Shown in pieces: positions 13,748 through 42,685 of a DNA stretch of 64,000 nt. Every line of letters starts with the position of its first letter. Position 1 is the first letter of the stretch. The stretch lies in IMG/VR virus record IMGVR_UViG_3300022821_000015, positions 13,973 through 77,972 of that record. The stretch is one strand, 5' to 3'. Source of the DNA: a virus. A program made the position numbers and the translations under genes. The notes under the pieces are model-generated. The model saw only the letters and a program-made list of their open reading frames with translations, searched no databases and had not been told where the DNA came from.

Positions 13748-14599
13748 CTATTGCCAGTCCACTTTTTCGATTGAATATTCATATTGCGCTTCTTTGTAGA
13801 ATTTCTTCCTTTGGGTAAGATGCCGCTTCGCAAACTTACACGTTGACGTAACGTCCCAAATCTGCACGAAATCCTTGTCTTCCGCTTTACGGATACCCCG
13901 CCCAATACTCTGGATAACACGAATGAAACTCTTGCCCGGTTCCAACAACATAAGATTAAAGATGCGAGGTATGTTGATACCCACAGCAGCAACGCCATAG
14001 GTGGCAACGATAATCTTATTAGTTCCTGTTTTAATCTCGTCATAGGTTTCCTTTCGCTTATCGCCTTTTGTAGCACCACTTACGAACATAGCATCAAAGC
14101 CGTTATCGTTTAGTTTTACTACAATATCTTTACCCGCCTGAACACGGTCTACAAGGACAAGCATATTACCACTTTTACTTACCGTTGCAATAAGACCCGC
14201 CAAATAGTTCTGACGTTCGTTATCTGTTAACAAATATTTCAGTTCGCTTTGGTAGTTCGGGTATTCTTTAATGTCTATTAATTGTACCACATTTACATGG
14301 CAATTTGCAAGCACTCCTTTCTCCTGAAGTGATTTTGCTGATACCTCATTCAATACAGGACCGATAGCACATAGGATACCAGCCTTTGCTAACTCTTCTT
14401 TCGGAACGGTTCCCGTCAATCCCCAACGAACAGGAATATGTGCCATTGGACCCGTTAGAATATTTTTCAGCATATCAGCTTTTGCACCGTGACAGTTCGA
14501 TACGACTACGTTGTTCGCCACATAATTGTGGTTATTCTCCACATGAAGATTGTATGTTATTGCTGGCTTTTTTATTATTATCTTAGATTTCATTTTCAT
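13748..14599 (-). CDS. uvsW: UvsW helicase C-terminal half preceded by a 35-aa split-intein C-part
   Basis: IntC TYNLHVENNHNYVANNVVVSN|C, then HGAK, GLTGT (motif III), ATYGVAAVGINIP and QSIGRGIR (motif VI). Confidence 0.9.
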   Translation of the reverse strand: MKMKSKIIIKKPAITYNLHVENNHNYVANNVVVSNCHGAKADMLKNILTGPMAHIPVRWGLTGTVPKEELAKAGILCAIGPVLNEVSAKSLQEKGVLANCHVNVVQLIDIKEYPNYQSELKYLLTDNERQNYLAGLIATVSKSGNMLVLVDRVQAGKDIVVKLNDNGFDAMFVSGATKGDKRKETYDEIKTGTNKIIVATYGVAAVGINIPRIFNLMLLEPGKSFIRVIQSIGRGIRKAEDKDFVQIWDVTSTCKFAKRHLTQRKKFYKEAQYEYSIEKVDWQ

Positions 14600-15468
14600 C
14601 GTATATTACTCACCTTATCCTTTATGCTGTCTGGTAAATCAGTTAGCATTATCTCATCTATATTATGCTTGAACCACGACTGCGATACAATAGCGTATCC
14701 CCATCCCATCTGATTAGCCCATTCCGTAGCATATTTTTCCTTGGCACGGGATTTATCATTCATACACTCGGTAGGCTTTATCTCTATCAGTATACCAAGT
14801 GCTTCATTGTGAAAGTCAACTATGTAAATGTGCTCTACACCATCATGCATATATGGTATTCTAATTTTCTCGTATTCATAATCACTGTTAATCGAGTGCC
14901 ATGCAGCCTCCCACGATGATCTATATTTCATTCCGTTGTATTCTACTTGCCAGTGTGTCCAACTATTATGAATATTAGGAGTGAATTTCCCAGTCCTAAT
15001 ATTTTCCTTGACGCGAACAGATGATGCGTGTCGCTGTGCGATGGTAGGTGAAATACCGTACATCGGATTACCTTTCCCGATTCTATCGGTGGATAATTTC
15101 ATCAACCTATCATCATTCTCCTTCGTCAATCCTTTATTCCACGGAACAGTCCCGGTATGGCTATCCTTATTCCACGGCGTACCAGTGTTAAGGTTTTTTC
15201 TTATCTTGTCGCCGTGCTGTCTCTGACATTCACTTCCGCCAAGGTTTGCCGCCGAAGACTTGCGTTTAGAAATATATTCGGCACGCAATGTTTGATTTTG
15301 GTGATATGCAATATCAATGTCCCAACCTGCTCGGAATCTATTCCATAGCAGGTAACCCTTCTCTACAATACCGGTGGACGTTTCGAACAACCCATCTGCC
15401 ATCTGTGTCACTGTAATCTCAAATCCTGCGTCTTCCAACCTTTTGTTCCAATCAACTTTTTTTGCCAT
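14596..15468 (-). mobile_element. Free-standing homing endonuclease between the uvsW halves (NUMOD3-like repeats plus TnsA/gp4-like nuclease)
   Basis: PWNKD/PWNKG and GKGNPMYG repeats; YRSSWE...YEKIRIPY...YIVDF...IEIKP. Confidence 0.8.
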
Positions 15469-15477
15469 CTAAATATC

Positions 15478-15523
15478 CCATAAATACACCCGCTTTAGTG
15501 CGGTGTGTTCATAGTATTTATGC
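15478..15523 (-). promoter_or_regulatory. Late promoter (CATAAATA, overlapping the uvsW-N stop) with inverted repeats upstream of the endonuclease
   Basis: Minus strand gcaTAAATActatgaacacaccgcactaaagcgggtgtatttatg: arms cataaatac/gtatttatg and an inner acaccgc/gcgggtgt. Confidence 0.5.
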
Positions 15524-16540
15524 AAAGTACGAAATTATATCATGATTAATAGTCAGATGCTTCGCCTGAACCCATCCTTCAGTAGTTTTTATTTTATGAT
15601 TACCAGTTATCTCCAACACGGTATCATCGTCCATCGTAATCTCGTACATGTCTTCCGCATTAGACGATGCGAGGTTCTCGTGTCGTTTCATAACGCGATT
15701 GTACTCCATGGCACCGGTTTGTTCGTTGAGTGTCAGCACAATATCGCCTACGCTAATATCTTTAATCATCACATTCCCCTTCGATGTGCTCACTAATGTT
15801 TTTTCATCCAAACATTCATCAACAATAACCGCCACTACCCCGTATAAAAACTCTTCGATAGTAATGCCTTCGGTTTTGGCAGCTGTCTTCTTCATAAGTG
15901 CACCAAGGCTTTGCCAAGTGCATATAGTATGCTGAAATCCGATGTCTTTACGATCACCGTAATAGACGCCCACGTTTAGACCCATATTGATATAGTCTTC
16001 TTCCGTTTGCGTGACCAATGACTTATTCGGGACAATAACAATGGTTCGCCCTCGGTCTTCACACTTATGCGATAGAATAGCGGTTATAAGCGTTTTTCCA
16101 GCCCCTGTGGCGATTTCTTGGACACCTTGGGGGTTTTCTAGGAAACCATTGATAATCTCTACCTGATAGTCACGAACCGCCACGGGTGTTCCAGCTACGG
16201 GATGACCCTCTGGCCAGATGAAATCTTTATATGAATCTTCTTTTACTTTTTCAAATGGTTCAACATATGAATCGTATTTGCGGCGGTCATCAAGATCGAC
16301 TGTATATCCTTCTTTCTCAATATCTTCAAGAATATCAGGAAGCAGATTGATATATGTTCCGCCACCCATTTGAAAGAATGCAATCTTCCCATCCCACCGA
16401 CCTAGTTTGACCGAAGGGATATGGAACGCACCCGGTACTTCATATTTGAACTTGTTGTATAACTTTTTTCGTATAGAGGTATCTAAACCAGTAACCTTAC
16501 AATTGCATTCATCGTTTACTATAATTTTCGCTTTTGGCAT
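15518..16540 (-). CDS. uvsW: UvsW helicase N-terminal half ending in a 98-aa split-intein N-part
   Basis: RDYQ, ATGAGKT, VIVDE|CLDEKTLVST...ITGNH (block B), then stop. Confidence 0.9.
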   Translation of the reverse strand: MPKAKIIVNDECNCKVTGLDTSIRKKLYNKFKYEVPGAFHIPSVKLGRWDGKIAFFQMGGGTYINLLPDILEDIEKEGYTVDLDDRRKYDSYVEPFEKVKEDSYKDFIWPEGHPVAGTPVAVRDYQVEIINGFLENPQGVQEIATGAGKTLITAILSHKCEDRGRTIVIVPNKSLVTQTEEDYINMGLNVGVYYGDRKDIGFQHTICTWQSLGALMKKTAAKTEGITIEEFLYGVVAVIVDECLDEKTLVSTSKGNVMIKDISVGDIVLTLNEQTGAMEYNRVMKRHENLASSNAEDMYEITMDDDTVLEITGNHKIKTTEGWVQAKHLTINHDIISYFA

Positions 16541-17201
16541 TTAAATCCTTGTATATCAAATCTGTCCAGACTGTATGCCCTTCGATATCAGGATGCCCGT
16601 AATCATCGGCTTTTGGATATGTCTCTAAGTATTGCTCCATACTTGAACCCCACATTAACCACTTATCATTGTTTATCTTATCGATGCCCATATAAGGTGG
16701 TTGCATTTGTTTAGTAATAGGATGATTATCATCTTCAAACTGATGCAAGTAGTCATTTTCTAAAGCATTAAACATCAGATAATGGATATCTCTGTCTTCT
16801 AACATACGCTGTACAGTCCTTATATAATACACGGTTTGGTATAGTAAAGTCAAGTTATTATAACAGTTTTTATAATAAAACTCACGCATCTCAACTATAT
16901 CGCCAAATGCTTCTCTCTCCGGTAATGCCATTGAATGCATAATGCGTATCATATCCCCATCGTGATACGGTAGCTCATATCTTTCGTGCTGTGTCCATCC
17001 GATAACAACCATATCGGGATCATTATCCAAAAGATATTCAATCGTTGTTCTAAATATTCGGGCGTTTGAACCACCGCCTTTTGCTAGTTGGTCTAAATCG
17101 CAATCATATTTTCGCTGTAACTGATATGGCCATGAATCCGATTTATTAAAGTTATCATAAACCCCTTCGGTAAAACTACAACCGTTTGTCATTAAAAGCA
17201 T
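16509..17201 (-). CDS. SGNH-hydrolase-like protein
   Basis: NGCSFTEG, AKGGGSN and GHPDIEGH. Confidence 0.6.
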   Translation of the reverse strand: MLLMTNGCSFTEGVYDNFNKSDSWPYQLQRKYDCDLDQLAKGGGSNARIFRTTIEYLLDNDPDMVVIGWTQHERYELPYHDGDMIRIMHSMALPEREAFGDIVEMREFYYKNCYNNLTLLYQTVYYIRTVQRMLEDRDIHYLMFNALENDYLHQFEDDNHPITKQMQPPYMGIDKINNDKWLMWGSSMEQYLETYPKADDYGHPDIEGHTVWTDLIYKDLNAKSENYSKR

Positions 17202-18232
17202 TGGATTTCCATCCCTTGCTCAACGCCACCCGTGCCATCCGCACACCGACCGCACTCATGCCCACACCGTGTAAGTGATTTTGAATCCCATGCATTATTA
17301 ATCTTTAAAAACTCATTCATTATTTCTACCATCGATCTTTTATATCCATTGATATTAAGTTTCAAATCCTTTAATTCATATCCAAAGTCGCTGTCGTATG
17401 TATGCGGGAATGATCCACCAAGCCAACAGCAAGGCCACACGTCACCGTTCGCCGCCACATATATCATTTTACTATCGATTGATTTGCATTGGATTGTTTC
17501 ATAGTCAACCGATGTTGACAATATCATTTGATTGTCTATTTCGTAGTTTTGTTGCATTTGTTTTTCTAGTTTAAGATATTCATCTAGTGGAACAAGTGGT
17601 TCGGGATTGTCGCCAATCCAAAAAGGTTCACCCATGGGCGTATATGCCGCACCTTCGTTTCGGTTATCATCAAACACTTTGAATTCACTGAACCCATATT
17701 TCTCTGCTAATATTTTACAATCATTGCGTTGGTGTCGATTATGGGCAAACTCAATAAACTGCCAAGTTGCATATCCGCCAGCATCATTGAACGCACGTGC
17801 ATTTTCAATGATTTTATTCCAGAATGTTTGCTGTCTATAAATCTTATGAGTATCTTCAAGCCCATCGATACCAAATGTCACTTTAAGGTTTTTACTGGCT
17901 AAGTTTTTCCACCAGTCAGGCGAACGTAACGATCCATTGGTATGAACTTCTATTTCAACATGCGGATATTTTTCGTTTACATATTCCACAATCTCCACAA
18001 AATATGGCGATACACATGGATCGCCGTATGTTCCACACATATCCAATACCATATTTTCATTGGAAAGTATCTGATCGAATATTGTTTTAAATTGATCCAA
18101 TGTCATATCCATTATAGGGAAACCATCTCGAACACCGTATCCATTAAAGTTACGGGGGCAAAATGGACAGGCTGCATTGCACCTTGATGTTATCTCAACG
18201 TTGGCGTATTTAATATTTTGTACTGGGAACAT
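17192..18232 (-). CDS. Radical SAM protein with C-terminal SPASM/twitch domain
   Basis: CNAACPFC, GTYGDP, HTNGS, GIDG, YVAANGDVWPCC...CGHECG; start revised to MFPVQ. Confidence 0.85.
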   Translation of the reverse strand: MFPVQNIKYANVEITSRCNAACPFCPRNFNGYGVRDGFPIMDMTLDQFKTIFDQILSNENMVLDMCGTYGDPCVSPYFVEIVEYVNEKYPHVEIEVHTNGSLRSPDWWKNLASKNLKVTFGIDGLEDTHKIYRQQTFWNKIIENARAFNDAGGYATWQFIEFAHNRHQRNDCKILAEKYGFSEFKVFDDNRNEGAAYTPMGEPFWIGDNPEPLVPLDEYLKLEKQMQQNYEIDNQMILSTSVDYETIQCKSIDSKMIYVAANGDVWPCCWLGGSFPHTYDSDFGYELKDLKLNINGYKRSMVEIMNEFLKINNAWDSKSLTRCGHECGRCADGTGGVEQGMEIQCF

Positions 18233-18250
18233 ATAGTATTTACCATACAT

Positions 18251-18279
18251 AAGAAAGGGGCAGCATTTCTGCCACCCCC
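18251..18279 (-). terminator. Intrinsic terminator
   Basis: ggggtggca-GAAA-tgctgcccc followed by tttctt. Confidence 0.7.
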
Positions 18280-18304
18280 TCAAGGCTCAGTGTAAGTTGA
18301 CGCC

Positions 18305-19357
18305 TTAATCCCTCATACAAGTGTTACGAACGAATGTTGTCCAATCCTTGTCACTGGTTTCCGCAAGGATGCGGCAATCTGCGATTTTCAAAGCCATCCG
18401 AAGTGAAACCTCACGTAGTTTATCTTTATTCTCATACATAAACTCTAAGATTTCGTTTTGTTCTTCTTCAGTCAGCGTATACTTGGCTGGATTAAACAAC
18501 TTGCCCGTTGCGGCGATTTGCTTTACCCGCAAGATTTTGTCTCGCATCGTGTTCAGCGTCAGGTCAAGATAATGGCACCGTGACATAAGCGCATCAAGGT
18601 GTGGCTTGATTTTTGGTGCTTTGACTTTCTCGAAGTTGACGTTCGTAATAAACATAACCGAACCTTGAAACTTGAACTTCGATGGTGCTTCTGCTTTATC
18701 CTTGCGCCCCATACGGTCACTATTCCAAGACAACCAACGTGCATCACTTGAGTCCAGTGCGGCTTTCAAGAGGTTCAACGCTTGTACATCTTCGAGAACG
18801 GTATCACAATCATCAAATACCAGAACCGAACCTTTGTCTGAGAACTCATAAAGTTTCTCGTAAAGACCTCGTGGCGACATTGCACCCTTTACCATTTCGG
18901 CTTTATGGGTTGCACCAAGATCAGTGAACATTTGCATCTTGGATAACTCACGCTCAACACCGTATGACTTACCAACGCCCGGTGGTCCCGACACAACCAC
19001 GCCGCGGATTTTACGTGCCATCATTGCTTTGGTCATTGAATCCAGCATTTCAAAGCGGGTGCTGATTTCTTCGATGCGTTCTTCATCAGTTTTATCTAGA
19101 ACGATTTTCTTGTTTGGTGTGGATGCACCAGAAAAGGCAACAGTTGAATGATACTCGTCTTCATCAACGAACTGCACATTATCGGGGGCAGTATACAAGC
19201 GGACCTTACCGAAGCTTGCGCCCAATACTTGTGTTGCATCAACGGTTAGGAATGTTCCTTGTGTACCGTTATTAAAATTCTTTATGACAGGGAAAACCTT
19301 GTCGCTGATAATGGTCTGGCGAACCCGACCTGTAGATACTCTTGCGTATGCAGTCAT
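18305..19357 (-). CDS. AAA+/P-loop ATPase
   Basis: GPPGVGKS, VLVFDDCD, FITN and ALMSRC. Confidence 0.85.
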   Translation of the reverse strand: MTAYARVSTGRVRQTIISDKVFPVIKNFNNGTQGTFLTVDATQVLGASFGKVRLYTAPDNVQFVDEDEYHSTVAFSGASTPNKKIVLDKTDEERIEEISTRFEMLDSMTKAMMARKIRGVVVSGPPGVGKSYGVERELSKMQMFTDLGATHKAEMVKGAMSPRGLYEKLYEFSDKGSVLVFDDCDTVLEDVQALNLLKAALDSSDARWLSWNSDRMGRKDKAEAPSKFKFQGSVMFITNVNFEKVKAPKIKPHLDALMSRCHYLDLTLNTMRDKILRVKQIAATGKLFNPAKYTLTEEEQNEILEFMYENKDKLREVSLRMALKIADCRILAETSDKDWTTFVRNTCMRD

Positions 19358-19393
19358 TTGTAAACTCCGTGTATGTATTGACTTACTTTAAGC

Positions 19394-19422
19394 ATATTAA
19401 ACGAAACGATTGGGTTTGTCAA
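19394..19422 (-). promoter_or_regulatory. Sigma70-type early promoter
   Basis: TTGACA-17 bp-TAATAT; leader GTAAGT...GGAGTTTACAAATG resembles the one at 32040. Confidence 0.6.
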
Positions 19423-19598
19423 CTGTTATTTCGAAATTTGTCCAGTTCAATGCTGATTCCTTCACAAAGTGTTGCACACGTTAGCACCACCGCAAGTCCT
19501 AACATTACTCCAGTAGCCGTACCTGATGCACCCGTATCATGCATACCATAAAACATTGTCCAACTAATAATCGTGGTTATCATATATACATATATCAT
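19419..19598 (-). CDS. Small membrane protein (59 aa, not in ORF track)
   Basis: MIYVYMITTIISWTMFYG...GVMLGLAVVLTCATL; ATGA overlap with the upstream ORF. Confidence 0.4.
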   Translation of the reverse strand: MIYVYMITTIISWTMFYGMHDTGASGTATGVMLGLAVVLTCATLCEGISIELDKFRNNS

Positions 19599-19912
19599 GA
19601 TACAAGTATTCCTTTTTCTTTGATTAGTTTTCGACCTTCAGCGGTCATTGCAAATTCTTCAAACTCTTTTTCAGTGAACATATCACGTTCTGTGGTCAAT
19701 GCATATAATCCGTGATTGTCAGGCGAATATCTGCCCCGCATCAACATAGCGTTAACCATATGTTCAATGCTCTTCCATTGTGCAGTGGATCGTAGTTCAT
19801 CACCAGTCAGAGTATCCCAAAAATCGTCCTTCGGGTCTGGAAGGTCAATCTTGACCAGCATATCAATACCGAACGAAATCACTTCAGTATCGTAGTCAAC
19901 TTTCGGTCGCAT
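19595..19912 (-). CDS. Hypothetical protein
   Basis: 105 aa; TTGACA-16-TAGAAT promoter at 20000-20027. Confidence 0.55.
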   Translation of the reverse strand: MRPKVDYDTEVISFGIDMLVKIDLPDPKDDFWDTLTGDELRSTAQWKSIEHMVNAMLMRGRYSPDNHGLYALTTERDMFTEKEFEEFAMTAEGRKLIKEKGILVS

Positions 19913-20039
19913 GCTATCAAGAAATAATCAGTGTTAGGAAGAACAGTAGGTATTTTCATTTTAATACTCGGTCAATGACGCTAGGATTGCTGTTAATGTA
20001 TTCTACCATACCTTCCACATTTGTCAAGATAAATATTAT

Positions 20040-21032
20040 GTGTTCATAGAAAAAATAAGACAAATATTCCCCGACAGTCTAATAGTAGACGCCGCACTGA
20101 AGTATCCAATCACCGAAGATGGATGGGAAGTCGATATGCCCGAAATAGAAGATTGTCGGTTTCATTTAAAAGACTTTCGACTTATATTAATATTACAAGA
20201 TATGCTTACTATAGATGACACAAGTTTATTTCCACGTGAACTAACCCAAATACACAGTCATTATTTTAACAAGGTTGATTTAAATCAACTCATTGTGATT
20301 ACTTGGCCATGTGGGTTAGCTGCCGATTGGAACCAAACAAACAGCTTTACAGTCGTGGAGTTTAGTTCGCACCAATATAACTTATGGGAAGCATATAAGC
20401 AATCTGAAGATGTATTACGTGAAGAATTCAAACACAAAGATTATGAAGATAATTTCCTTTGCATGAATAGGATTGATAAGCCTCATCGACGAGCGATATA
20501 CGGTGCGATTAAAGATTGTCCCGGCAATAGTAGCTATCAGCATATGGGAATCGAGTTAAAGTATCCCGGCTTTTCCTATACCGAATACAACAAGCATTAC
20601 GATAATCTATTGAACTTACTCACGTTAAAGAAGAACTTCAATACCAGTCTATTCAGTATCATTTGTGAATCACAATACTATGAACGCTACGGTATTATTA
20701 CTGAAAAAACTTTTAATGCTATGGTGGCGGGTCATCCATTTATTATGATAGGTCACCAATCCGCATTACAAGATATAAAGAGTTACGGGTTTAAAACGTT
20801 TGACAATATGTTCAATGAAGATTATGATGCTGAAGATAATAGCAAACGTGGGGTCGATGCGCTTCACGCTAACTGGCTGATGATTGGCAAAACGATGGCA
20901 GCGAAGTCTATGTATGAACTACAGCACTATTGCCATGATGATATTGAATATAACCGTGACTATTTCTTTAACGAGTTTGGAAACTATCTTATCAATAGTC
21001 TTCAACAGCAGTTACTCAAATCTTGGTCTTAA
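20040..21032 (+). CDS. Putative glycosyltransferase-like protein
   Basis: FLCMNR..HR and ITEKTF..M..GHPFIMIG...GFKTF motifs reminiscent of GT10-like C-terminal domains. Confidence 0.5.
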   Translation: MFIEKIRQIFPDSLIVDAALKYPITEDGWEVDMPEIEDCRFHLKDFRLILILQDMLTIDDTSLFPRELTQIHSHYFNKVDLNQLIVITWPCGLAADWNQTNSFTVVEFSSHQYNLWEAYKQSEDVLREEFKHKDYEDNFLCMNRIDKPHRRAIYGAIKDCPGNSSYQHMGIELKYPGFSYTEYNKHYDNLLNLLTLKKNFNTSLFSIICESQYYERYGIITEKTFNAMVAGHPFIMIGHQSALQDIKSYGFKTFDNMFNEDYDAEDNSKRGVDALHANWLMIGKTMAAKSMYELQHYCHDDIEYNRDYFFNEFGNYLINSLQQQLLKSWS

Positions 21033-27835: not shown

Positions 27836-28656
27836 TTCCAGTAATCCTGTTTTTTAGCGGCAACAATATCATTCTTATGTGATTTACCATTTTGCTTACG
27901 CTTACCTTTTAGATGGTCAACATAGTCACCGATAATACTATTCACAAATGGATGTCCTTTTACATTGTCTGGATTCAAATCGAAGTTGACAATCTTTTCT
28001 TCTGCTTCCATTTCATTACGGACAAGATCAAATGCATGACAATCCGTCCACTGACGAACATCAAAAATAGCATCGGACGTATACAATAACTCAAACCTAT
28101 TCATAAACTCACGAAAGTATGGATGGTTCATATCGTATCCAAGGAATCCACATTCCGAATATGTAATACGTCCAAGATATGAACAGAAGTAATCCGTTGG
28201 TAATAGTTTTTTCATTGCGGATTCATTAACAGGCGCAAATGTAACGGTATCGGCATCGAACCAAAACATAACATCGCCATCGACCACTGTGGCTGCGTGT
28301 GTCTGTGCAAATACCTTATGACAAAATCTTACAGCATTCCATAAGTAACTTTCGCTTTGTTCCCATTTCGGCTTGATAATACCTTTGCGTTCAACGCCGC
28401 CTTCAATCTTATGCGTGTTAGGCATACCATTAGCAACTGGATCGTTTTGGTGACGGTGCTTGAAATCAATTATTTTATCATACGCCATTAAGTCGTGATA
28501 CACAACGTTATCATAATCGATGGTTGGTCGTGTGCCTTCGTAATATGCGTGAATAGTTACATCACCTTTCCAGTTTGCGGCAAATGTTTCAATCATTCGT
28601 TTGCCATATACATTATATCCATCGTCGTTAAATGTTGTTACAATATTATATTTCAT
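27832..28656 (-). CDS. GT-A glycosyltransferase / nucleotide-diphospho-sugar transferase
   Basis: VTTFN...YG, RFCHKVFA, WFDAD, SECGF and HLKG. Confidence 0.8.
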   Translation of the reverse strand: MKYNIVTTFNDDGYNVYGKRMIETFAANWKGDVTIHAYYEGTRPTIDYDNVVYHDLMAYDKIIDFKHRHQNDPVANGMPNTHKIEGGVERKGIIKPKWEQSESYLWNAVRFCHKVFAQTHAATVVDGDVMFWFDADTVTFAPVNESAMKKLLPTDYFCSYLGRITYSECGFLGYDMNHPYFREFMNRFELLYTSDAIFDVRQWTDCHAFDLVRNEMEAEEKIVNFDLNPDNVKGHPFVNSIIGDYVDHLKGKRKQNGKSHKNDIVAAKKQDYWK

Positions 28657-33382: not shown

Positions 33383-34636
33383 TTATTCAACTTCTTCTAC
33401 GACGACTTCTTCTGGTTCGATTTCTTCAACCACCGGCTCTGGATTATCAAGTGTATCCATATACTCGTTCATAACGATTTGAAGTTTATCGTTAGACCAG
33501 TTTTTACGGAACTCAATGATTTCTTCACCAGCTTTGGTTTCATATTTAAGGCGATTTCCTTGCTTAACAAGAATACCCTTTTCCTCAAACATATCCAACA
33601 TACCCGAATACGGGTCCATGCCTGTTTCGTATGGGATTTGAAGTTCTGCATCCTCAAAAGGTTTGTTGTATCGTGTTTTCATAATCTTACACTTAGCACG
33701 AATACCGTGAACCTTTGAAGTCTTTACGCCATCAGCATCAGTTTTCAACTTCAGCTTTTTCATAGCGATAACAATAGATGCCGCATAGATTGGACCTGAA
33801 CCGCCACTGATTTTATCATCTGGATCAAACATATCCTGTGATGCATATGTGTGGTTTGTAGCCACTAGACCGACATTGTAGTTACCGAACATATTAACAC
33901 AGTTCATAACCAATGACTTTAATGCACGTGGTTTGTGTCCAAAGTCACCTTTCATATTACCAGCAGTAAACTGGTCAATCTGAATGTCAGTAAGCAATGC
34001 ACCTAAAGAATCAATAACAAATAGAATCTTCGGACGTTCTGCTTCATCCATTTCTTTATAATCTTTCATAAACGATGCGATAGTTTTTGCTACATCGTCT
34101 ACTTTACTCATTGACAAACGTAGTAGTTTATCTTCACTTGTATCTACGTTTAGTGCGTGTAGCCAAGATTCATCAAGTGCGTTTTCGCTGTCAATAAGGA
34201 CAACATAGATGCCTTGATCTTGTGCATTTTTTACTACGTTACCCGATGCGATAAATGATTTACCAGAATTATGACTGGAAATGCCATCTCCCCAATATCG
34301 ATGATTAGCATGATTGACCTCAAAATCAAAACATTCAGCATCATCAATTGTGGATACTAAGATAATTTTCTCGGGGCCTGAAGTAGTCAAAATCACATCA
34401 CCATAGCTTAATTCAGACGCAAGTAACCATTTACCGCTTTCAAGCTGAACTAAATGGTTTTCAGCACACTCAGTCTGATGATTTTCAGTTCCAATTTTAA
34501 CCATCCCCATAACGCCCTTATCAAACCAGCTGACTATTGATTGATAACCGTCCGGTGTATCAATCTCAATATCATAACTATTTGACTTATACAGCTGTTC
34601 TAATTCTTCAACTGATACTGTTTTTTCAGTAAACAT
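33383..34636 (-). CDS. uvsX: UvsX/RecA C-terminal half preceded by a 123-aa split-intein C-part
   Basis: ECAENH (block B), CFDFEV...YWGDGISSHN|SGKS, then IDSENALD, VIDSLG, NHTY and SGG. Confidence 0.92.
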   Translation of the reverse strand: MFTEKTVSVEELEQLYKSNSYDIEIDTPDGYQSIVSWFDKGVMGMVKIGTENHQTECAENHLVQLESGKWLLASELSYGDVILTTSGPEKIILVSTIDDAECFDFEVNHANHRYWGDGISSHNSGKSFIASGNVVKNAQDQGIYVVLIDSENALDESWLHALNVDTSEDKLLRLSMSKVDDVAKTIASFMKDYKEMDEAERPKILFVIDSLGALLTDIQIDQFTAGNMKGDFGHKPRALKSLVMNCVNMFGNYNVGLVATNHTYASQDMFDPDDKISGGSGPIYAASIVIAMKKLKLKTDADGVKTSKVHGIRAKCKIMKTRYNKPFEDAELQIPYETGMDPYSGMLDMFEEKGILVKQGNRLKYETKAGEEIIEFRKNWSNDKLQIVMNEYMDTLDNPEPVVEEIEPEEVVVEEVE

Positions 34637-34637
34637 A

Positions 34638-35765
34638 TTATTCTCCTATTTCAGTTACGCATTTTTTAATAATTATATCAGGGGTTGATCGGTATTCTGA
34701 TTCCCAAATAATAACTAATTTTTTTACTAGTTCGCAATCTCGTATTCTATTTTCCCGGATAAAATCCGAGTCCCATTTCTCTTTGGACGTATACCCGAAT
34801 GACTTCATATCTGCTTCATACATTAATGGATTACGATGAAAGTAATCACCATGAAATTCAATAACCGTCCCTGAATCTTTATGAAAGAAATCAACACGCA
34901 AGCCATCAATTAAATATTCATAATTTCTCGTTTCATAATACATATTTCCCTGAACATACTTCGTTATAGCATCAAATAAATGCTGGGAAATCTTTGAAAA
35001 CCGTTGCGTTGGTTTACTTTTCATTTTTTCACAATAATCATTGTATTTATTTAAAGCTTCCTCATATGATAAACCACGGGCCATGCCCCCTTTTATACTA
35101 TGTGATTTTTTTAAATTAAAGAGAGCGTTATCTTCTTTTGATTTATTTGAAAGAGTTTGTTGCCATTGTTTAATTCTAGCTTCGTATTTTACACGCCCTA
35201 TATCTTCGCCATATTTCTTTGTATAATATATCAATCCGTTGGTTGTTTGAATATTTGAAACCTCTGCTTTAGCTTCAAGCTCAGTATAACCTTGTTTTAG
35301 CCAAAAAGCTACTGACCTACATGTATATTCACTAGTTCCTTTTGTTTTCTCAACTGACAACATATTTCGGGCTTTCTGTATTTTAATTACTTCCTGCTTG
35401 GCGGCTTCTTCAGTATATCCAAGATTAATCCAGTATTCTGAGCAATTTTTAAACCCTGCTTTCTTCCGGGTTGTTTGCGTTTTATATATTTCTTTAAAAT
35501 TAGCTTTGCCATAACGCAAGACTTGCGTATATATTGAAGTGCCTGAAATCCCTTTGAGCCGCCTATATCTCCCTTTATAATTATTCAAATCATATAACAC
35601 AAAACATGCAATAGTGGCTAACATATTTTCTACTTTTTTCGGGGTTCCATAATGATCAAAGAAATCATTCAGTCGTTCATAATGACATGAAGTTAAAACC
35701 TTACTTAATAAAATATCCCTTACGTGCTTTCTTTTTAAAAATCGCTCTGTTTGTTTGGTTATCAT
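34638..35765 (-). mobile_element. Free-standing Vsr-like homing endonuclease between the uvsX halves
   Basis: YW...GYTEEAA repeats; SKIS...LRVDFF...VIEFHGDYFHRNP...D..R...IWESE. Confidence 0.85.
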
Positions 35766-35767
35766 TA

Positions 35768-35808
35768 TACCAGTCTCCTTTTATAGTATTTAGCATAGAA
35801 GACTGGTA
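35768..35808 (-). promoter_or_regulatory. RBS-sequestering hairpin with a late promoter in its loop
   Basis: 12-bp stem UACCAGUCUUCU / AGGAGACUGGUA; the loop contains CTAAATA. Confidence 0.75.
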
Positions 35809-35816
35809 AGATACAT

Positions 35817-36056
35817 TTATTTCGGCTTATATCTGATTTTTATTGATGCGGTTTTAGGCAAGCACCCAGATTCACCGGCAAGAATGGTTACTTTACCAAG
35901 CGGGATACCTTTATTGAAATCACCACTAATACGATAGTTTAGTAGATAGTTTCCTGTTGAAATCCAATCGGTAGGATCGTGGAAACCAAAGCTGATTCCC
36001 TCAATAGATTTAGTTAAGTCTTTTCGAAATTTGCTCACATCGAAGGGACGGGGCAT
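35817..36056 (-). CDS. uvsX: UvsX/RecA N-terminal fragment ending in a 15-aa split-intein N-part
   Basis: ISTGNYLLN...GIPLGKVTILAGESG|CLPKTASIKIRYKPK stop; AGGAG RBS. Confidence 0.9.
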   Translation of the reverse strand: MPRPFDVSKFRKDLTKSIEGISFGFHDPTDWISTGNYLLNYRISGDFNKGIPLGKVTILAGESGCLPKTASIKIRYKPK

Positions 36057-36194
36057 TATTATTCTCCTAAAAAAGATGTGATGCTATCCCTGCATTCGCA
36101 TCACTATTGGACTCTGTAACGCTATATCTAATAGCGAAAAGATATATCGGCGGGGTCCAAAAAGATTACTTAAACGTCACAGCCACGTGGGGGT

Positions 36195-37223
36195 TTAAGC
36201 TTCCTGTTGTTTACGTGAACGAATTTTTGATAGAATGTCCGCCGCACGATCAGATGAGTCGCCTTTAGATTCAGCTACTGGAGCTTCTTTCTTTGGTTCT
36301 TCAACGTCGAACGGTGGCTTTTCGTCATCATTCGTAGTTTTTGTTGGAGTTGATGTTGTCGTTGATGATGTTGTATCATCACGTGTCGCACCTTCTGGTT
36401 TGTCTACTCCCCAAGGACGGTAATATGCCGCCCACTTTTCTGGGTCATATTTTTCACCGTCAACTGACGCTTCAAACATTTCCATAATAACCTTCAAATC
36501 AACATCAGAAGGTTTGCGTGGTAGGAAGTCACTTAGTGTACTCAAACCGTATTCTTCAATAGCCGCAAGTTGCTCTGCTGTTAATGCAGATTCCTTACGT
36601 GCCCACGAAGATTGATCGTAAGAAGCCCATTTACCATCCTGTGTTTTGCGGATGTTAAAATCAAGACCTGCTTCATAATCATCTGGCCACGCATCCAAGT
36701 CGTCTAAAAGAATAGAACGTGCTTTTTTGTGTAAGCCGGGGTTCATTACAAACCTACGGATTGGGTTTTCTGGGGTATTATCTTCCATCGCATTGTTGTT
36801 GCGATCAACAAATCCCGGATGCTCAAGTACAAATCCCTGATAGATATAAGAACGCTTCTTCCAGTATTTATTAGCTTGCGCTTCCATTGCTGGGTCTTTA
36901 TACCAAGGCTTGATTTCAGCCTGAACCGGGCAGCTAGACCCATCGTTATACATCTCCACGCAAGGAACTTGTAGTTTTACAAACTCTTTGGTTGGATCGC
37001 CCACAACGCCTGAAAACTCAAGATTGATCATAAGACGCTCAACGTGAAAACCTTCAACGTTAGCTTCGTCGCCGTCTGGGCAAAATCTTACTTTTGCTGT
37101 GGTATCTACTGGGATTTGCCAAAATGGATAACTTGCGTTATCGTTCACAAAGGTTGATTTACCTTCGTTTGCTGCTTCTTTTTTTAGTTGGTCGCGGATG
37201 TCCGCTAATGATTTACGTGCCAT
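36195..37223 (-). CDS. gp32: Single-stranded DNA-binding protein, gp32-like
   Basis: VRFCP, CPV, YWKKRSY, GLDFNIRK...ASYDQS and an acidic C-terminal region. Confidence 0.85.
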   Translation of the reverse strand: MARKSLADIRDQLKKEAANEGKSTFVNDNASYPFWQIPVDTTAKVRFCPDGDEANVEGFHVERLMINLEFSGVVGDPTKEFVKLQVPCVEMYNDGSSCPVQAEIKPWYKDPAMEAQANKYWKKRSYIYQGFVLEHPGFVDRNNNAMEDNTPENPIRRFVMNPGLHKKARSILLDDLDAWPDDYEAGLDFNIRKTQDGKWASYDQSSWARKESALTAEQLAAIEEYGLSTLSDFLPRKPSDVDLKVIMEMFEASVDGEKYDPEKWAAYYRPWGVDKPEGATRDDTTSSTTTSTPTKTTNDDEKPPFDVEEPKKEAPVAESKGDSSDRAADILSKIRSRKQQEA

Positions 37224-37226
37224 GTT

Positions 37227-37292
37227 TATGCTCCTATGCCTTTATGCCGTATATGCCTTGGCTACTATGTGTAGCCTATTGTAGTCTATGCC
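37227..37292 (-). promoter_or_regulatory. Putative gp32 translational operator
   Basis: Five (G)GCATA repeats (four at 8-9 nt spacing around the RBS) and a ggctac/gtagcc hairpin. Confidence 0.5.
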
Positions 37293-37398
37293 TTGATCAC
37301 TTTGTGCGATCTATCGTTGCAATGCTTATTCAATATAACCATTATAACGCATTGTATTTATCAAATACTATATAAAAATAAAAAAAGTTTGGGTATTA

Positions 37399-37632
37399 TT
37401 ACTTACTGGTTACTGGTTTTTTCAACCATCCGTAACCATCGATCTTCGGTGGGGGTAGTTCCGTTACAGTATGCTGTTCGACTTCCGACATTTTTTGACG
37501 CATTTCTTCAGCTGCTACTTTACGTGCATTCAATGAACGGGGGGTTGTATCCGTGAATGATGCTGGTAGTTGTCCATTAACCGTTGGTTCACCGATCCCA
37601 GCCAGTTTTCTCATATAATCCAAATCATTCAT
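37399..37632 (-). CDS. Hypothetical protein
   Basis: MNDLDYMRKLAGI N-terminus. Confidence 0.55.
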   Translation of the reverse strand: MNDLDYMRKLAGIGEPTVNGQLPASFTDTTPRSLNARKVAAEEMRQKMSEVEQHTVTELPPPKIDGYGWLKKPVTSK

Positions 37633-39564
37633 TTATTTTAATCCTGCAATCTTTTTCATATATTCCATGTCGTCGTCCGCTTCGTCACTTTCGTTAAAGC
37701 GTTCAGGTTTATCGTGGGCGAAATAGTCTTCGTCACTCATAAAGAAATCACTATCTGGGTCATAGTATTTTCCTGCTTGCTTGTCATAATAAACAAACTT
37801 GCCTGACTTCAATCGGAATGGACCTTCAAGACCTTCTGCGTCACGATTTTTATAGCGTTCTTTCTCGTGGTCAGTAAGTTCTGGGAATACAGTATAGCCT
37901 TCTTCGACATCCATATCTTCATCACCTGTTTCTACGTCAGCTTCTGGATCATTTTCCCAAGCCTGAACCATATCAGAAAGATTTGTTCCAGCGTCCATCA
38001 TGACATCGATAGCTTTGTCTCGTGCTTCTTCATCTGCACTCATTACATAATCTTCTAGTGCATCAAACTCATTGTCACGTAGTAGCTCACCCGTGTGCAT
38101 GATAAAATCATAATGTGCGTGTGTGTTACCAATATCGTAACCGAACTGCATTAGTTCGTCGGCAGCATTTTCGGTTTCTGATGAAATATCATCGTCGTTG
38201 CCGCCCAGTTCGTCAACCCAGTTTTCAAATACACCAAGTTCACTTTCCGTTACAGTAGGTTGATTGTATCCAACCGAACCATTATTCCATAGCATAAACA
38301 TATGCTTCGCCATGCCTTCGTCAACACGGTTTTCAAGGTCCAATGCTTCATTGAACTCATCCGTGCGTGATAATACGTTTTCATTAAAGAACTCAAGGAC
38401 GGTCTTTTGTGTTTCTTTTACTGCTGTTTTTTTAGCATCCTCTGATTCAAACTGCATCATTTGCATTTCTTCAATCATTTCGGATACCTGTGCACGTAGG
38501 CTTTCGTCAATATCTGGATTACCGTCTAGTGTTAGGCTTTCCATACGCAATACGTTTTGCGCTCTTTCTTCGATTTTCTTTTCGTTTTCAGCAACATCCA
38601 TTTCTTGTTTTTCTGCGATTGCACGATTAAGATATGGAAGAACATCATCAAACTCTTCATTGTATATTTTCTTTGTAAGTGTGTCACGAAGACTTTCGAA
38701 TGTGTCTTCTTCGTCTAGCTGTGAACTTACTGCAAAACTTTCGGCGAATGTTGAATACCCTTTTTGCTTCTGGAGAGATTCTAGTGTATTCTTTACTTTT
38801 TTGTAACGGCATTTAGATGCTTCAAGAACTTCGGCTGCGCCTTCCATCATATTTGATGTGTCACGAGCTTTGCGATTAAACTTACTAAGCGCCTTCATTT
38901 CGTCGTGCATTTCAACGATTGCTTCCGCAATATCATCATTGATTGCTCCTTCATTTGCTACATGTCGTGCCATTGCACGGGCGGTAGGCATATGATTACG
39001 AGGCACCAAGAAACGTTCACCAGCAGCATTCTCAATATAAATGCTTTTGATATTTCTTGAACGTGAACCTTGAACTTCTTCATCAATCGGTCTATTATGA
39101 CGAACGATTAATCGTGTATTTGCTTGTTCTGTATAAGAACTGCGTCTTGAACCGTACATTTTACTCTCCATTCTTGCATCTTTATGATCATAGGTGCTGT
39201 TGTTACGTTTTAAATCAAAATCGTTCTTATCAAATCGAGCCTTGGTGTATGGCTCAACAGTCCAGTTCATCATTCTTGTATTAGCAAAGTCGCGCATTTC
39301 GTCTACAAAGCTATAGAATTTTTTACGTTCATCGCCTCGCATACCATCAGTAATATTATCACTATATAGCATTTCAAGAACTTCTGGATCAAACATATTA
39401 AATGTGATGATTTTGGTATTAGTGGTTGTTCCGTAGTTTACTTCAAAGATTACAGCTTCATCGATAGTATCAGTAACATTACCTTCACTATCCATCATAT
39501 GTAGGTCTGCAAACTTACTCAGCTTATAATAAAGTTCGTCGGCGATTGTTTCTCTGTTTTTCAT
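37633..39564 (-). CDS. Large acidic probable head/virion protein
   Basis: 643 aa; late promoter near 39588-39595; ends MEYMKKIAGLK. Confidence 0.65.
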   Translation of the reverse strand: MKNRETIADELYYKLSKFADLHMMDSEGNVTDTIDEAVIFEVNYGTTTNTKIITFNMFDPEVLEMLYSDNITDGMRGDERKKFYSFVDEMRDFANTRMMNWTVEPYTKARFDKNDFDLKRNNSTYDHKDARMESKMYGSRRSSYTEQANTRLIVRHNRPIDEEVQGSRSRNIKSIYIENAAGERFLVPRNHMPTARAMARHVANEGAINDDIAEAIVEMHDEMKALSKFNRKARDTSNMMEGAAEVLEASKCRYKKVKNTLESLQKQKGYSTFAESFAVSSQLDEEDTFESLRDTLTKKIYNEEFDDVLPYLNRAIAEKQEMDVAENEKKIEERAQNVLRMESLTLDGNPDIDESLRAQVSEMIEEMQMMQFESEDAKKTAVKETQKTVLEFFNENVLSRTDEFNEALDLENRVDEGMAKHMFMLWNNGSVGYNQPTVTESELGVFENWVDELGGNDDDISSETENAADELMQFGYDIGNTHAHYDFIMHTGELLRDNEFDALEDYVMSADEEARDKAIDVMMDAGTNLSDMVQAWENDPEADVETGDEDMDVEEGYTVFPELTDHEKERYKNRDAEGLEGPFRLKSGKFVYYDKQAGKYYDPDSDFFMSDEDYFAHDKPERFNESDEADDDMEYMKKIAGLK

Positions 39565-39616
39565 AGCGCACCTTTTCTATTAATGGTATTTATCACTGAC
39601 AGATTATTAAGTCAGC

Positions 39617-40717
39617 TTATCTCCAGCCACTCATTCCAGATATAGATGAGAAAAACGGCAATGGTGCCACCATTTGCTCATTATGGTCCCGCATATGCTT
39701 TTCTAACGTGGGATTATAGTCTTTTAATACCGTTGCCATACGCACTACAAGCAATGAAGCCATTACCAAGTCGTCGTTTTCACCTTCCTTTGATGAATAT
39801 GACCGTCCCTTTGCAACAAACGTTTTCATTTCAGATATAAGTGGTTTGCTATAAACAATCATTCGTTCTGATTCAATCATTACTTTAAACTTAGCGCAAG
39901 CCGCAATCTTAGAGTTCTCAGTCGTGTTAAATCCTTTGCGGAACTTCCTAACATTACCAAGTTTCTTCGGTTCTGACAGGAATATACCATCGATATTTTC
40001 CTCACCAAGTTCGGCAATATTGATTAATGCAGCTTCTCCGATTGAGTTATTTTCAACAGAATAATATACATCATTTTTTGTCCCTGTAACATCGGTTAGG
40101 TGGGCACAAATAGATTTCATTACTCTCACTTGTGTTGGAATATCGGACTTATTATGCATCCATTCACCGCATTGAATCATTTCAGGTAGTTCATATATTT
40201 GGATGGCTGCGTTGTCGCCGCCTGTTCCCATAGCGGGGTCCAATCCAACAAGATATACATGACCTTTTGATGGTTCTTTATACCATCGCACCTGACCATC
40301 CACTCTTACTGGCGTAACACCTTCCATATCAACTAGCTTCAACCCGCTAATCAAAGTTTCTTCGTGAATAATAAACTCACAGTTTGATGCCAATACTGTA
40401 TTAGCATAATATCGGTGGCCATCTTCGACTTCTACCAAATCAAACACAGCCCGAACACCAATATATTCTCGTGCAATAAGTGCAAGATGTCCCTCTGAAC
40501 TTAATACCACATCTCCTATATCAAAATCCTTTGCCTCTTTATAGTCAATCAAGTTTTGATATAATTTATGATCTTCTGTGCATTCCAATATTACACCTTG
40601 TTCAAAAGTCAGCTTCCATACTGCCTTATCTCCCATAAAAGATACTCCGGAAAAATCCTTATAGCCATCCGGCGTCAATACTTTATAGTTTTTTATGTTT
40701 GGAGCTAAATCACCCAT
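39617..40717 (-). CDS. terL: Terminase large subunit C-terminal (nuclease) half preceded by a 112-aa split-intein C-part
   Basis: CTEDH, VFDLVEVEDGHRYYANTVLASN|CEF, then GLDPAMG, VENNSIG and NDDLVMA. Confidence 0.92.
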   Translation of the reverse strand: MGDLAPNIKNYKVLTPDGYKDFSGVSFMGDKAVWKLTFEQGVILECTEDHKLYQNLIDYKEAKDFDIGDVVLSSEGHLALIAREYIGVRAVFDLVEVEDGHRYYANTVLASNCEFIIHEETLISGLKLVDMEGVTPVRVDGQVRWYKEPSKGHVYLVGLDPAMGTGGDNAAIQIYELPEMIQCGEWMHNKSDIPTQVRVMKSICAHLTDVTGTKNDVYYSVENNSIGEAALINIAELGEENIDGIFLSEPKKLGNVRKFRKGFNTTENSKIAACAKFKVMIESERMIVYSKPLISEMKTFVAKGRSYSSKEGENDDLVMASLLVVRMATVLKDYNPTLEKHMRDHNEQMVAPLPFFSSISGMSGWR

Positions 40718-41730
40718 TTTTCAAAATCATCCTTCGTTTTTAGTATTTGATAATTGGTTTTAGTCGTGAAGAGCCATACCTCATACGAATATCCTTGTTT
40801 TATAACTGCTTCCCTTTTACGAAGATTATTTACTATTCTACCATCATAACCATCACGGCCATTGGCATTCCACCACCACATTGATTTAACTTCAATGATA
40901 CGATTTTCATCTGGAATAAAAATATCTGGATAATATTTCTTTACTCGGTTTTTTTCATATGAATTATATTGAAAGACTTCTATTACATATTCTTCATAAT
41001 CGTTATGTACACTAATAGAATCTTCTGTATATGTTTCTAGTAAAGCATCGATCACCATATTTTCATAGCCTCGAATACCAATAATTTTACCGCTCGGGAG
41101 TTCATAATCTTTTACCGAAGAGTTACCTTTTCCAGACTTTTTTGAAATGTTTGGAAGTAAAAAGGTATTACCCACACCGAACTTTTCAATGTTTGTCTTG
41201 CGACGTTTTTCATTTATTTCATTCTGTTCGTCAGAAGATTTGGCCCCATTGGTCGCCGCCGATGCTTTCCAGTTAGAATAGTATTCATTGCCATATCTAT
41301 CCAGTTTGGTCTTCTTGGCCTTATCCTTAAATTCGTCGCTTTGTGTCGCCCATTCTGTGCCATATTTTGCACGGAAGGTTTCTCTGGATTTTTCCACTTG
41401 TTCTTGGATTTGCTCGGGTGTTCTCTTTGATGCAGCATTGGATTTGTTCTCAGAATCCGAGTGTCGTTGCTCATCTGTCCAGTTTTGTTTGGTTTCCGAC
41501 ACACTTTTTCCAACACATTTTGGTGCGCCACAACTATTAGCATATGTATGTGTATGTTGATAAAATGTTAAAGATAATCCACATCTACATTTTGGAGAAA
41601 TACCCGTGATGTATTCTTCATAATAGGACTGATATGTATAACTATGTTGTTTAAGATGTTTCGTGAATTGCCCATTTGATTTACAATATTTTTCATTGTC
41701 AATTTTTGATGTTTCGTATGTAGCACTCAT
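40705..41730 (-). mobile_element. Free-standing homing endonuclease between the terL halves
   Basis: Zinc motif, KYG/RYG/KFG repeats, RGYE...KYYPDIFIPDENRIIEVKS (PD-(D/E)XK). Confidence 0.85.
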
Positions 41731-41736
41731 TTATAT

Positions 41737-41774
41737 TCTCCTTGAAATCGTTTCATACTTATTTATCAAGGAAA
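41737..41774 (-). promoter_or_regulatory. RBS-sequestering hairpin with a late promoter
   Basis: 9-bp stem UUUCCUUGA / UCAAGGAGA; GATAAATA at the 5' arm/loop boundary, overlapping the terL-N stop. Confidence 0.65.
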
Positions 41775-42685
41775 TCATCATCTCTAAATTTTTTATACAG
41801 TGTTCCTATATCAACAATACTAGTGGCACCATTTTCATCTTGAATAGTTATCAAAGAAGAGTGTACCACGCAACAGTGTTCCCGCCTGAATTTTTCAGTA
41901 CCAATAGCCTGTTCTTCGTCGTCTGCCCATTTTTGGTCACGGTCTGGATGTTCGTGCCAGAATGATCTGAATGCTTTAAATCCATTCGTTCCAATACCCG
42001 TATCATTTCCAAAATCATCTACAGTTTTGTTTGCCATTTTCCATTCTAGGGCAAACTGATCTTCATCGGAGTTTGGCGTTGATGTGATAATACATTTACC
42101 ACCTGTTGCTAACGTAGGACGCATTGAAGTCCAGAATTCACTGGCGATTGTATTACGAACGAATGCAAATTCGTCTAGATATAATAACGTGATTGACATA
42201 CCACGACCCGTGTTTTCTGTCGTAGCTTGTGCCACCAATCTTGAACCGTTATCAAACTCCAATGAGTTTTTGTTATATGTAGTTGCGCCGCATCTAATGA
42301 AATCGGGACATAGTTCGTAAGCGTATCGCACACGTTGCATAATCTCAGCTGCACCTGATTGTTTATGTGCTGCTACAAGAATAATACTATCAGGCTTGAA
42401 CATAGCAAACCATAATAGGTATCCCGCTGCTGTTGTCGATTTTCCCGTCTGTCGTGGCATAAGCGCAATGGCAAAACGATTGTGGTGATATGTATCCACC
42501 AGTCTTTCTTGAAACTCGAACGGTGAATATTTAAGTTGACCCTTGGTAGGGTGCTGAATATAGAAATAATTTTCCAGAAAATATTTATGACCAGTTATCG
42601 GATCAGCACATTTTGCAAACTCTATCATTTGCTCACGTGTATATACCATTTTCATATTTGGTTTTTTAACTAGTTCTTCTGACAT
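41759..42685 (-). CDS. terL: Terminase large subunit N-terminal (ATPase) half ending in a 37-aa split-intein N-part
   Basis: PRQTGKST, LYLDEFAF, TSTPN and FRREHC|CVVHSSLITIQD... stop. Confidence 0.92.
   Translation of the reverse strand: MSEELVKKPNMKMVYTREQMIEFAKCADPITGHKYFLENYFYIQHPTKGQLKYSPFEFQERLVDTYHHNRFAIALMPRQTGKSTTAAGYLLWFAMFKPDSIILVAAHKQSGAAEIMQRVRYAYELCPDFIRCGATTYNKNSLEFDNGSRLVAQATTENTGRGMSITLLYLDEFAFVRNTIASEFWTSMRPTLATGGKCIITSTPNSDEDQFALEWKMANKTVDDFGNDTGIGTNGFKAFRSFWHEHPDRDQKWADDEEQAIGTEKFRREHCCVVHSSLITIQDENGATSIVDIGTLYKKFRDDDFLDK

Follow-up and report, generated by a model that had tools for sequence, protein, structure and literature searches.

The subject of this study is a 64,000-nucleotide stretch of viral DNA, referred to below as the window, which covers bases 13973-77972 of one linear 77,972-bp viral contig in IMG/VR (record IMGVR_UViG_3300022821_000015). 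Nearly all genes in the window lie on the minus strand. Three of them, uvsW, uvsX and terL, are each broken into two open reading frames (ORFs) that carry the two halves of an intein at the break, and a gene for a free-standing endonuclease sits between the halves. The N-terminal half of terL was 58.6% identical to its counterpart in the jumbo Pseudomonas phage PA5oct and had remoter matches in Atu_ph07 and in Rak2/PBECO4-like jumbo phages, which indicates that the contig represents part of an uncultured jumbo phage whose genes for replication and recombination are T4-like. The contig was estimated to be about 22% complete, and about 78% of the genome lies outside it. We consider it very likely that uvsW, uvsX and terL, all three of them essential, are fractured genes, in which inteins invaded conserved catalytic motifs and were each split by a free-standing homing-endonuclease gene.

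Layout of the three broken genes

Translation of the minus strand gave, for each of the three genes, an N-terminal half ending in an N-terminal intein fragment (IntN), a free-standing endonuclease, and a C-terminal half beginning with a C-terminal intein fragment (IntC) (Table 1). This is the layout proposed in the initial annotation, which had been made from the sequence alone. The IntN/IntC lengths that it gave, 98/35 residues in uvsW, 15/123 in uvsX and 37/112 in terL, were all reproduced, and its junctions, DE/CH, GESG/SGKS and FRREHC/CEF (here and below, a slash within a motif marks the border of extein and intein), were confirmed to the residue. The split position differed at all three loci, bearing out the claim of three different split architectures, and the endonucleases were indeed unlike each other, with no significant pairwise similarity (BLASTP E 0.07-0.5). 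The class to which the annotation had assigned the genes, fractured genes with split inteins and free-standing endonucleases, was also the right one; it was described, with a phage origin, by Dassa, London, Stoddard, Schueler-Furman and Pietrokovski in 2009 (PMC2677866).

Table 1. Features of the broken uvsW, uvsX and terL genes, with positions in the window.
Feature	Position	Strand	Remarks
uvsW N ORF	15518-16540	-	340 residues; ...VIVDE, then IntN, then stop
uvsW N-extein	15815..16540	-	Residues 1-242, through helicase motif II (...VIVDE); ResIII, UvsW_N, phrog_16259
uvsW IntN	15521..15814	-	98 residues (CLDEK...SYFA); Cys1, block B TGNH, canonical split site; net charge -7; PT-HINT/Hint matches
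uvsW free-standing endonuclease	14596..15468	-	290 residues; PF08722 E 4e-6; phrog_15427 'endonuclease'
uvsW C ORF	13748-14599	-	35-residue IntC, then CHGAK
uvsW IntC	14495..14599	-	35 residues, ends VVVSN, +1 Cys; net charge +4; match to the Intein_splicing hidden Markov model (HMM) at contig 28467-28640
uvsW C-extein	13751..14494	-	CHGAK...; Helicase_C
uvsX N ORF	35817-36056	-	79 residues; ...AGESG, then 15-residue IntN
uvsX N-extein	35865..36056	-	64 residues, ends in first half of Walker A, AGESG; phrog_97
uvsX IntN	35820..35864	-	15 residues, CLPKTASIKIRYKPK; net charge +5; from translation
uvsX free-standing endonuclease	34638..35765	-	375 residues; AlphaFold2 model, predicted local distance difference test score (pLDDT) 83; Vsr-like domain 253-375
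uvsX C ORF	33383-34636	-	123-residue IntC, then SGKSF
uvsX IntC	34268..34636	-	123 residues, ends SSHN, +1 Ser; net charge -15; VidaL 6VGV E 2.9e-43
uvsX C-extein	33386..34267	-	SGKSF..., RecA core; Pfam/PHROGs
terL N ORF	41759-42685	-	308 residues; ...FRREHC, then 37-residue IntN
terL N-extein	41873..42685	-	ATPase domain, ends FRREHC; Terminase_6N; aligns with PA5oct TerL 16-281
terL IntN	41762..41872	-	37 residues, Cys1; net charge -3; same length as GOS-TerL IntN (PMC11766414)
terL free-standing endonuclease	40705..41730	-	341 residues, DUF7487; PF24308 E 3e-35
terL C ORF	39617-40717	-	112-residue IntC, then CEF
terL IntC	40382..40717	-	112 residues, block B TEDH, ends LASN, +1 Cys; net charge -8; 6DSL_B E 3.4e-8
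terL C-extein	39620..40381	-	CEFIIHEE..., nuclease domain; Terminase_6C; aligns with PA5oct TerL from residue 283

Pfam and PHROGs placed the exteins as a UvsW-type helicase, a UvsX/RecA protein and a T4-type terminase. In each gene the paired ORFs jointly spanned a full-length homologue, and the residues on the two sides of the junction abut exactly in uninterrupted homologues. All three inteins have kept Cys1, the block B His (TGNH in uvsW, AENH in uvsX, TEDH in terL), the terminal Asn and a Cys or Ser at position +1. The start of the C-terminal half overlaps the nuclease stop as ATGA in uvsW and by 13 nucleotides in terL, and in uvsX a gap of 1 nucleotide separates the two.

As the layout was read from one metagenomic contig, the stops could be assembly or sequencing errors in what are really contiguous inteins with nested endonuclease domains. 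Against this, a start codon of its own opens every nuclease ORF, with a Shine-Dalgarno-like sequence, judged by eye, just upstream, and the types to which the nucleases belong (TnsA-like, Vsr-like and DUF7487) are free-standing ones rather than nested LAGLIDADG or HNH domains. The same stop-bounded layout was present in independent IMG/VR contigs, 14 for uvsW, 14 for uvsX and one for terL. Proteins identical to the truncated products have been recorded on 5-7 contigs from several sources, the longest of 81,406 bp; the exceptions are the exact 283-residue uvsW C-terminal half, which is not on record, and the 308-residue terL N-terminal half, found on one contig, a 296-residue form of its cluster being found on six. 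Because the truncated products recur on several contigs and the layout on independent ones, neither chance nor an assembly artefact is a credible explanation, and we regard erroneous stops as extremely unlikely.

All three nucleases are consistent with the PD-(D/E)xK superfamily and with three different families within it, the uvsW nuclease through its Pfam TnsA-N match and the other two through predicted folds. The uvsW nuclease combines a TnsA-N-like PD-(D/E)xK core with NUMOD3-like repeats. The terL nuclease belongs to DUF7487, for which we counted 6,386 representatives at E ≤ 1e-3, and the canonical PD-(D/E)xK core residues D269, E280 and K282 were invariant. Its AlphaFold2 model (pLDDT 92) has a C-terminal domain with a predicted restriction-endonuclease-like fold, closest to TnsA (Z 8.1), Vsr (Z 7.7) and Hjc (Z 6.3).

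By sequence, the uvsX nuclease matched no Pfam or NCBIfam family and had no significant match to any solved structure, 3R3P included; 16 homologues sharing sequence words with it were found in a large protein collection. The model, built on 14 homologues, shows a helical N-terminal region of about 250 residues followed by a C-terminal domain (Table 1). This modelled domain resembled Vsr (1CW0, Z 11.2, 129 residues aligned; 1VSR, Z 9.9), the DUF559-like 3HRL (Z 10.6) and the catalytic domain of I-Bth0305I (3R3P, Z 10.1, 94 of 97 residues), and a profile of the nuclease matched the Vsr sequence weakly over the same region (E 0.5). D292, E303, D307 and H310, which form a D...E-x-x-G-D-x-x-H core, were conserved in the 14 homologues. 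It is the predicted fold that places this protein in the Vsr-like homing-endonuclease family, which was predicted by Dassa et al. (PMC2677866) and characterised as I-Bth0305I (PMC3239194). The Vsr-type fold of the nuclease domain is shared with I-Bth0305I (EDxHD), but the helical N-terminal region of the uvsX nuclease is a different one, and the nuclease gene lies within a split intein and not within a group I intron.

The leaders of two of the three nuclease genes were predicted to fold. The uvsX leader (35757-35820, minus strand) forms a 12-bp hairpin that buries an AAGGAG Shine-Dalgarno sequence and has a TATAAA-like loop (z -4.7), and the uvsW leader (15460-15520, minus strand) also folds (z -4.9), whereas no significant hairpin was found in the terL leader (41722-41765, minus strand; z -0.2). 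The hairpins of the two leaders resemble the translational control of T4 homing endonucleases.

If these are fractured genes, each gene would be expressed as an N-extein-IntN and an IntC-C-extein polypeptide, whose intein halves would associate and splice in trans to give full-length UvsW (...DE-CH...), UvsX (...GESG-SGKS...) and TerL (...REHC-CEF...). The nuclease encoded between the halves would cut intein-less alleles in co-infecting relatives, and repair would copy the nuclease gene together with flanking intein sequence into the cut alleles (homing). The predicted splicing would restore DECH, GESGSGKS and REHxCEF as they occur in uninterrupted homologues (58 uvsW loci and more than 60 uvsX loci in IMG/VR, and the TerL proteins of PA5oct and Atu_ph07).

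Alleles of the elements and recent homing

We surveyed the 80 best IMG/VR relatives of uvsW, in which all alleles fall at the same DE/CH site. The 58 loci without an intein encode homologues that align to residues 1-242 and then run straight on, and an intein is present in the other 22. Three of these (L005-L007) have a contiguous in-frame mini-intein, in 14 the intein is split and a homologous nuclease (35-45% identity) occupies the same position, and in five (L010, L011, L014, L020 and L021) the split halves are adjacent without a nuclease. As we read them, these allele classes are the steps that Dassa et al. put forward in their gene-breaking model, all represented at one site.

Against solved inteins the uvsW intein gave weak matches only, among them that of the IntN to the Spl DnaX mini-intein (7CFV, E 1.6e-4) and one to gp41-1 (6QAZ, E 0.1). 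Like the canonical metagenomic split inteins gp41-1, NrdJ-1 and IMPDH-1, it is split at the canonical endonuclease-insertion position and has an acidic IntN and a basic IntC; it differs from them in host gene and site (helicase motif II, DE/CH), in its weak sequence similarity and in its TnsA-N-like nuclease. In our literature search no description of an intein in UvsW came up, nor any paper on an atypically split intein in UvsX, and the DE/CH split intein of uvsW with its TnsA-like nuclease is apparently unpublished and uncharacterised.

The uvsX element could be traced to a known intein. Its IntC matched VidaL (6VGV/6VGW; chain 6VGV_A, E 2.9e-43) over query residues 1-126, that is, over the whole IntC and the SGK extein. 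The VidaL chain in the PDB ends in ...SHA-SGK, the same SGK extein as in the window. In the IMG/VR locus L167 the IntC agrees with the VidaL PDB chain in all of its first 20 residues, and this locus has the layout AGESG/C... with a 16-residue IntN, then a homologous Vsr-like nuclease between the uvsX halves, and then ...SHN/SGKSY. The SGK extein and the L167 match indicate that VidaL is a uvsX fractured-gene intein and that the window element is an allele of it. The two share a split just after the first strands and the Walker A insertion point (..ESG/SGK..), but the window IntN has 15 residues rather than 16 and a diverged sequence, and splicing of the window element is predicted only. VidaL, with its 16-residue IntN, is described as fast-splicing in PMC13014065. 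IntN fragments of 15, 16 and 19 residues occur in the VidaL-like family, in which a length of 15 is common and not exceptional. The window IntN ties with the shortest characterised IntN, the 15-residue fragment of PolB16 OarG (PMC10189870, PMC13014065). A comparison of the 15-residue IntN and its flank with PDB sequences gave no match.

The nearest uvsX homologues (81-88% identity), among which we sought close relatives with a fractured gene, were all uninterrupted, and the same cassette was found at 14 remoter IMG/VR loci. At one of these loci (L182:3501-3734) just a 78-residue nuclease remnant lies between the uvsX halves, which we read as decay of the nuclease inside a fractured gene. A second interruption of uvsX, near residue 276-280, was seen in L164-L166, L169 and L150, several of which have another Vsr-like nuclease ORF in the gap.

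The terL IntC matched the engineered consensus Cat-TerL (6DSL_B) with an E value of 3.4e-8, and we assign the intein, as a distant relative, to the GOS/AceL/Cat-TerL family. GOS-TerL, AceL-TerL and Cat-TerL resemble the window element in their terL host, short IntN, long IntC and +1 Cys; the window element differs in having Cys1 (Ser1 in GOS-TerL), a penultimate Ser and a DUF7487 nuclease, and in the distance of the relationship. The C-exteins of GOS-TerL and AceL-TerL presumably start with CEF. The 37/112 split in the window mirrors the 37/115 split of GOS-TerL (PMC11766414).

One IMG/VR contig (IMGVR_UViG_3300035034_000053, or L156) carries terL with the same split, and we compared it with the window part by part. 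The nucleases were 99% identical in amino acid sequence, with a synonymous divergence (dS) of 0.02. Identity was 86% for the N-extein (dS 1.5), 68% for the C-extein (dS saturated), 46% for the IntN (dS 0.80) and 96% for the IntC (dS 0.42). The near-identical tract runs from about 41770 to 40450 in the window and takes in the nuclease gene, most of the IntC and about the last 40 nucleotides of the IntN, this last part being deduced from 12 identical C-terminal IntN residues. The nuclease dS of 0.02 against the N-extein dS of 1.5 points to recent homing of the cassette, with co-conversion of the IntC but not of most of the IntN. By such co-conversion an almost identical IntC would have come to work with two IntNs which are unlike each other along the first 25 residues. 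This fits the report that the IntN fragments of GOS-TerL and AceL-TerL are interchangeable (PMC11766414). The ratio of nonsynonymous to synonymous divergence (dN/dS) was 0.06 for both the terL N-extein and the IntC, values that speak for strong purifying selection on both.

The L156 contig also has, at the Walker A site of terL (664-2595; GK/A...THN/S), a contiguous endonuclease-containing intein of about 320 residues, LAGLIDADG-like by eye, and its uvsX is uninterrupted. Intein content therefore varies gene by gene between close relatives.

A split terminase gene is also present in the cultured Agrobacterium jumbo phage Atu_ph07 (NC_042013; L240:2477-4668), in which terL consists of two adjacent coding sequences split at Walker A (…GRQLGKS…). 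The second of these starts with a long IntC ending in SHN/T; no nuclease lies between them, and the record flags no intein. Because this phage is cultured, a split terminase does not by itself prevent a phage from being viable.

Trans-splicing and its alternatives

The inteins of the window are homologous to characterised families with splicing activity. Intein halves that no longer splice could nevertheless act as high-affinity docking domains and hold the enzyme halves together non-covalently. Such an arrangement has a precedent, described in PMC3045599, in a fragmented phage ribonucleotide reductase assembled through interaction domains derived from a mobile element, and the Ser that stands in place of the penultimate His in the uvsW and terL inteins would agree with it. 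On the other side, Cys1, the terminal Asn, the +1 Cys or Ser and the block B His are kept both in the window and in relatives, the break in uvsX falls within the P-loop, which would hardly tolerate an insert of 138 residues, and the uvsX intein is homologous to the fast-splicing VidaL. We therefore think docking without splicing improbable.

A second alternative to trans-splicing is that the three genes are dead remnants left by insertion of the nuclease genes, with the function supplied by the host or by intact copies in the part of the genome not on the contig. In its favour is the completeness of the contig, about 22% only. However, the exteins are full-length, in frame and, as the terL values suggest, under strong purifying selection, and a phage needs its own terL, which is split in the cultured Atu_ph07. 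No second copy of uvsW, uvsX or terL was found within the 78-kb contig, and a complete relative with a fractured uvsW (360,683 bp, with terminal repeats) has no other uvsW. We judge it very unlikely that these are dead genes.

Several points weigh against functional trans-splicing at these loci. The penultimate intein residue is Ser instead of His in the uvsW and terL inteins, although this Ser is conserved in the relatives examined; the uvsW intein has TGNH, Cys1 and the terminal Asn, and its penultimate Ser is shared by all 22 intein-bearing relatives. Natural inteins without the penultimate His do exist. In terL, the contrast between the IntN and the IntC in their identity to L156 means that the present pair may be a recent hybrid of uncertain efficiency. 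With only about 22% of the genome on the contig, intact copies of uvsX and terL may lie elsewhere. Finally, both splicing and nuclease cleavage are predictions from sequence.

The initial annotation had gone further and made both recombination and packaging dependent on trans-splicing. The absence of second copies from the contig and the single, fractured uvsW of the 360-kb relative support this part of the claim; with most of the genome unseen, the dependence is supported but not proven.

That the three pairs are mutually orthogonal is plausible. Pairwise, the uvsW, uvsX and terL inteins were 24-31% identical, and when three inteins of nrdA on the same contig (see below) were added, all 15 pairs were 22-33% identical. 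Cross-reaction looks unlikely because of this low identity, the three split positions and the differing charge patterns (Table 1). As a toolkit the set adds little, since the inteins characterised so far include VidaL and the TerL inteins, and 15-member sets of orthogonal split inteins are available (PMC7090010).

Intein load of the contig and its meaning

The contig has six inteins in four genes, uvsW, uvsX, terL and nrdA, and four of the six are split. The nrdA gene lies at contig positions 1-3533 (minus strand), 10.4 kb ahead of the window start, and consists of three ORFs with no endonuclease gene between the pieces. Its first intein is atypically split (IntN 22 residues, IntC 148 residues) and follows ...AVKSC; an extein of eight residues, SQGGVRGG, separates it from the second, a contiguous mini-intein of 191 residues. 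The third is a canonical split intein (IntN 156, IntC 33) at SNL/CQEI, and its +1 Cys presumably aligns with the active-site cysteine in the SNLC motif of E. coli NrdA. A scan of the contig with the intein HMMs PF07591, PF14890 and PF01079 gave nothing beyond uvsW, uvsX and nrdA, and as it also missed the terL intein it is weak as evidence of absence. In five near-complete relatives the HMM scan matched two inteins in one and one in another, and none in the remaining three; this comparison is rough, as the model overlooks atypical inteins.

Some neighbouring ORFs in the window are also of interest. A free-standing ORF at about 1-1000 (minus strand; contig 13520-14960) shows the core IAIECNGIYWHSE, which is Vsr-like, and weakly resembles the terL nuclease in its repeat region; it probably encodes a fourth homing-type nuclease, with no intein attached. 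Adjoining uvsW is an ORF (17192-18283, minus strand) whose CxxxCxxC motif, recognised by eye only, is one that radical SAM enzymes typically have, and an unannotated ORF of 230 residues (16509-17201, minus strand) comes after it.

All three loci have the features of the fractured genes of Dassa et al., namely broken enzyme ORFs, IntN and IntC ends and a free-standing endonuclease between them. In that study half of the loci had Vsr-like nucleases, and one fractured terminase locus had an unusually long IntC of 122 residues (PMC2677866). The eight host enzymes reported there do not include a fractured UvsW or UvsX, UvsX being just a neighbouring gene, and the loci came from short metagenomic pieces, whereas here three loci and a three-piece nrdA stand on one contig.

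Distant relatives of the Vsr-like nuclease of uvsX (25-31% identity) adjoin long IntC-like ORFs at Walker A sites in uvsW (L174-L178, L180, L183 and L229) and in terL (L184, L199, L201-L205, L220, L222 and L230). In two of these loci (L180 and L183) uvsW is fractured twice, at Walker A and at DE/CH. Because relatives of this nuclease recur at the Walker A sequences of uvsW, terL and uvsX, it is conceivable, though on balance doubtful, that inteins with a short IntN and Vsr-like nucleases form one family of mobile modules that is specialised on the P-loop (Walker A) sequence and, in jumbo phages, has passed from one ATPase gene to another, unrelated one. If so, the atypical position of the split would be a side effect of where nuclease genes of this family insert.

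Each cassette is of a kind already described, and the uvsX and terL inteins belong to families characterised in the laboratory. What is new is the uvsW allele series, the recent transfer of the terL nuclease and the three nrdA inteins; how densely split inteins are packed on this contig is also of note. The yield for protein engineering is modest: a VidaL relative with a 15-residue IntN, a GOS-TerL relative with Cys1, and an apparently uncharacterised canonical pair from uvsW. For the evolution of these elements, the DE/CH site of uvsW offers an unusually complete allele set, from empty to contiguous, nuclease-split, and split after loss of the nuclease.

For the biology of the phage, the contig suggests that a single phage can depend on a number of independent trans-splicing reactions at once, which would serve recombination, repair, packaging and, through nrdA, nucleotide synthesis, and it would be a natural case of three split architectures coexisting in one cytoplasm. 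A phage of this kind, which has six inteins (four split) within 78 kb, would be a natural test bed for the number of independent trans-splicing pairs that can be sustained in one infection.

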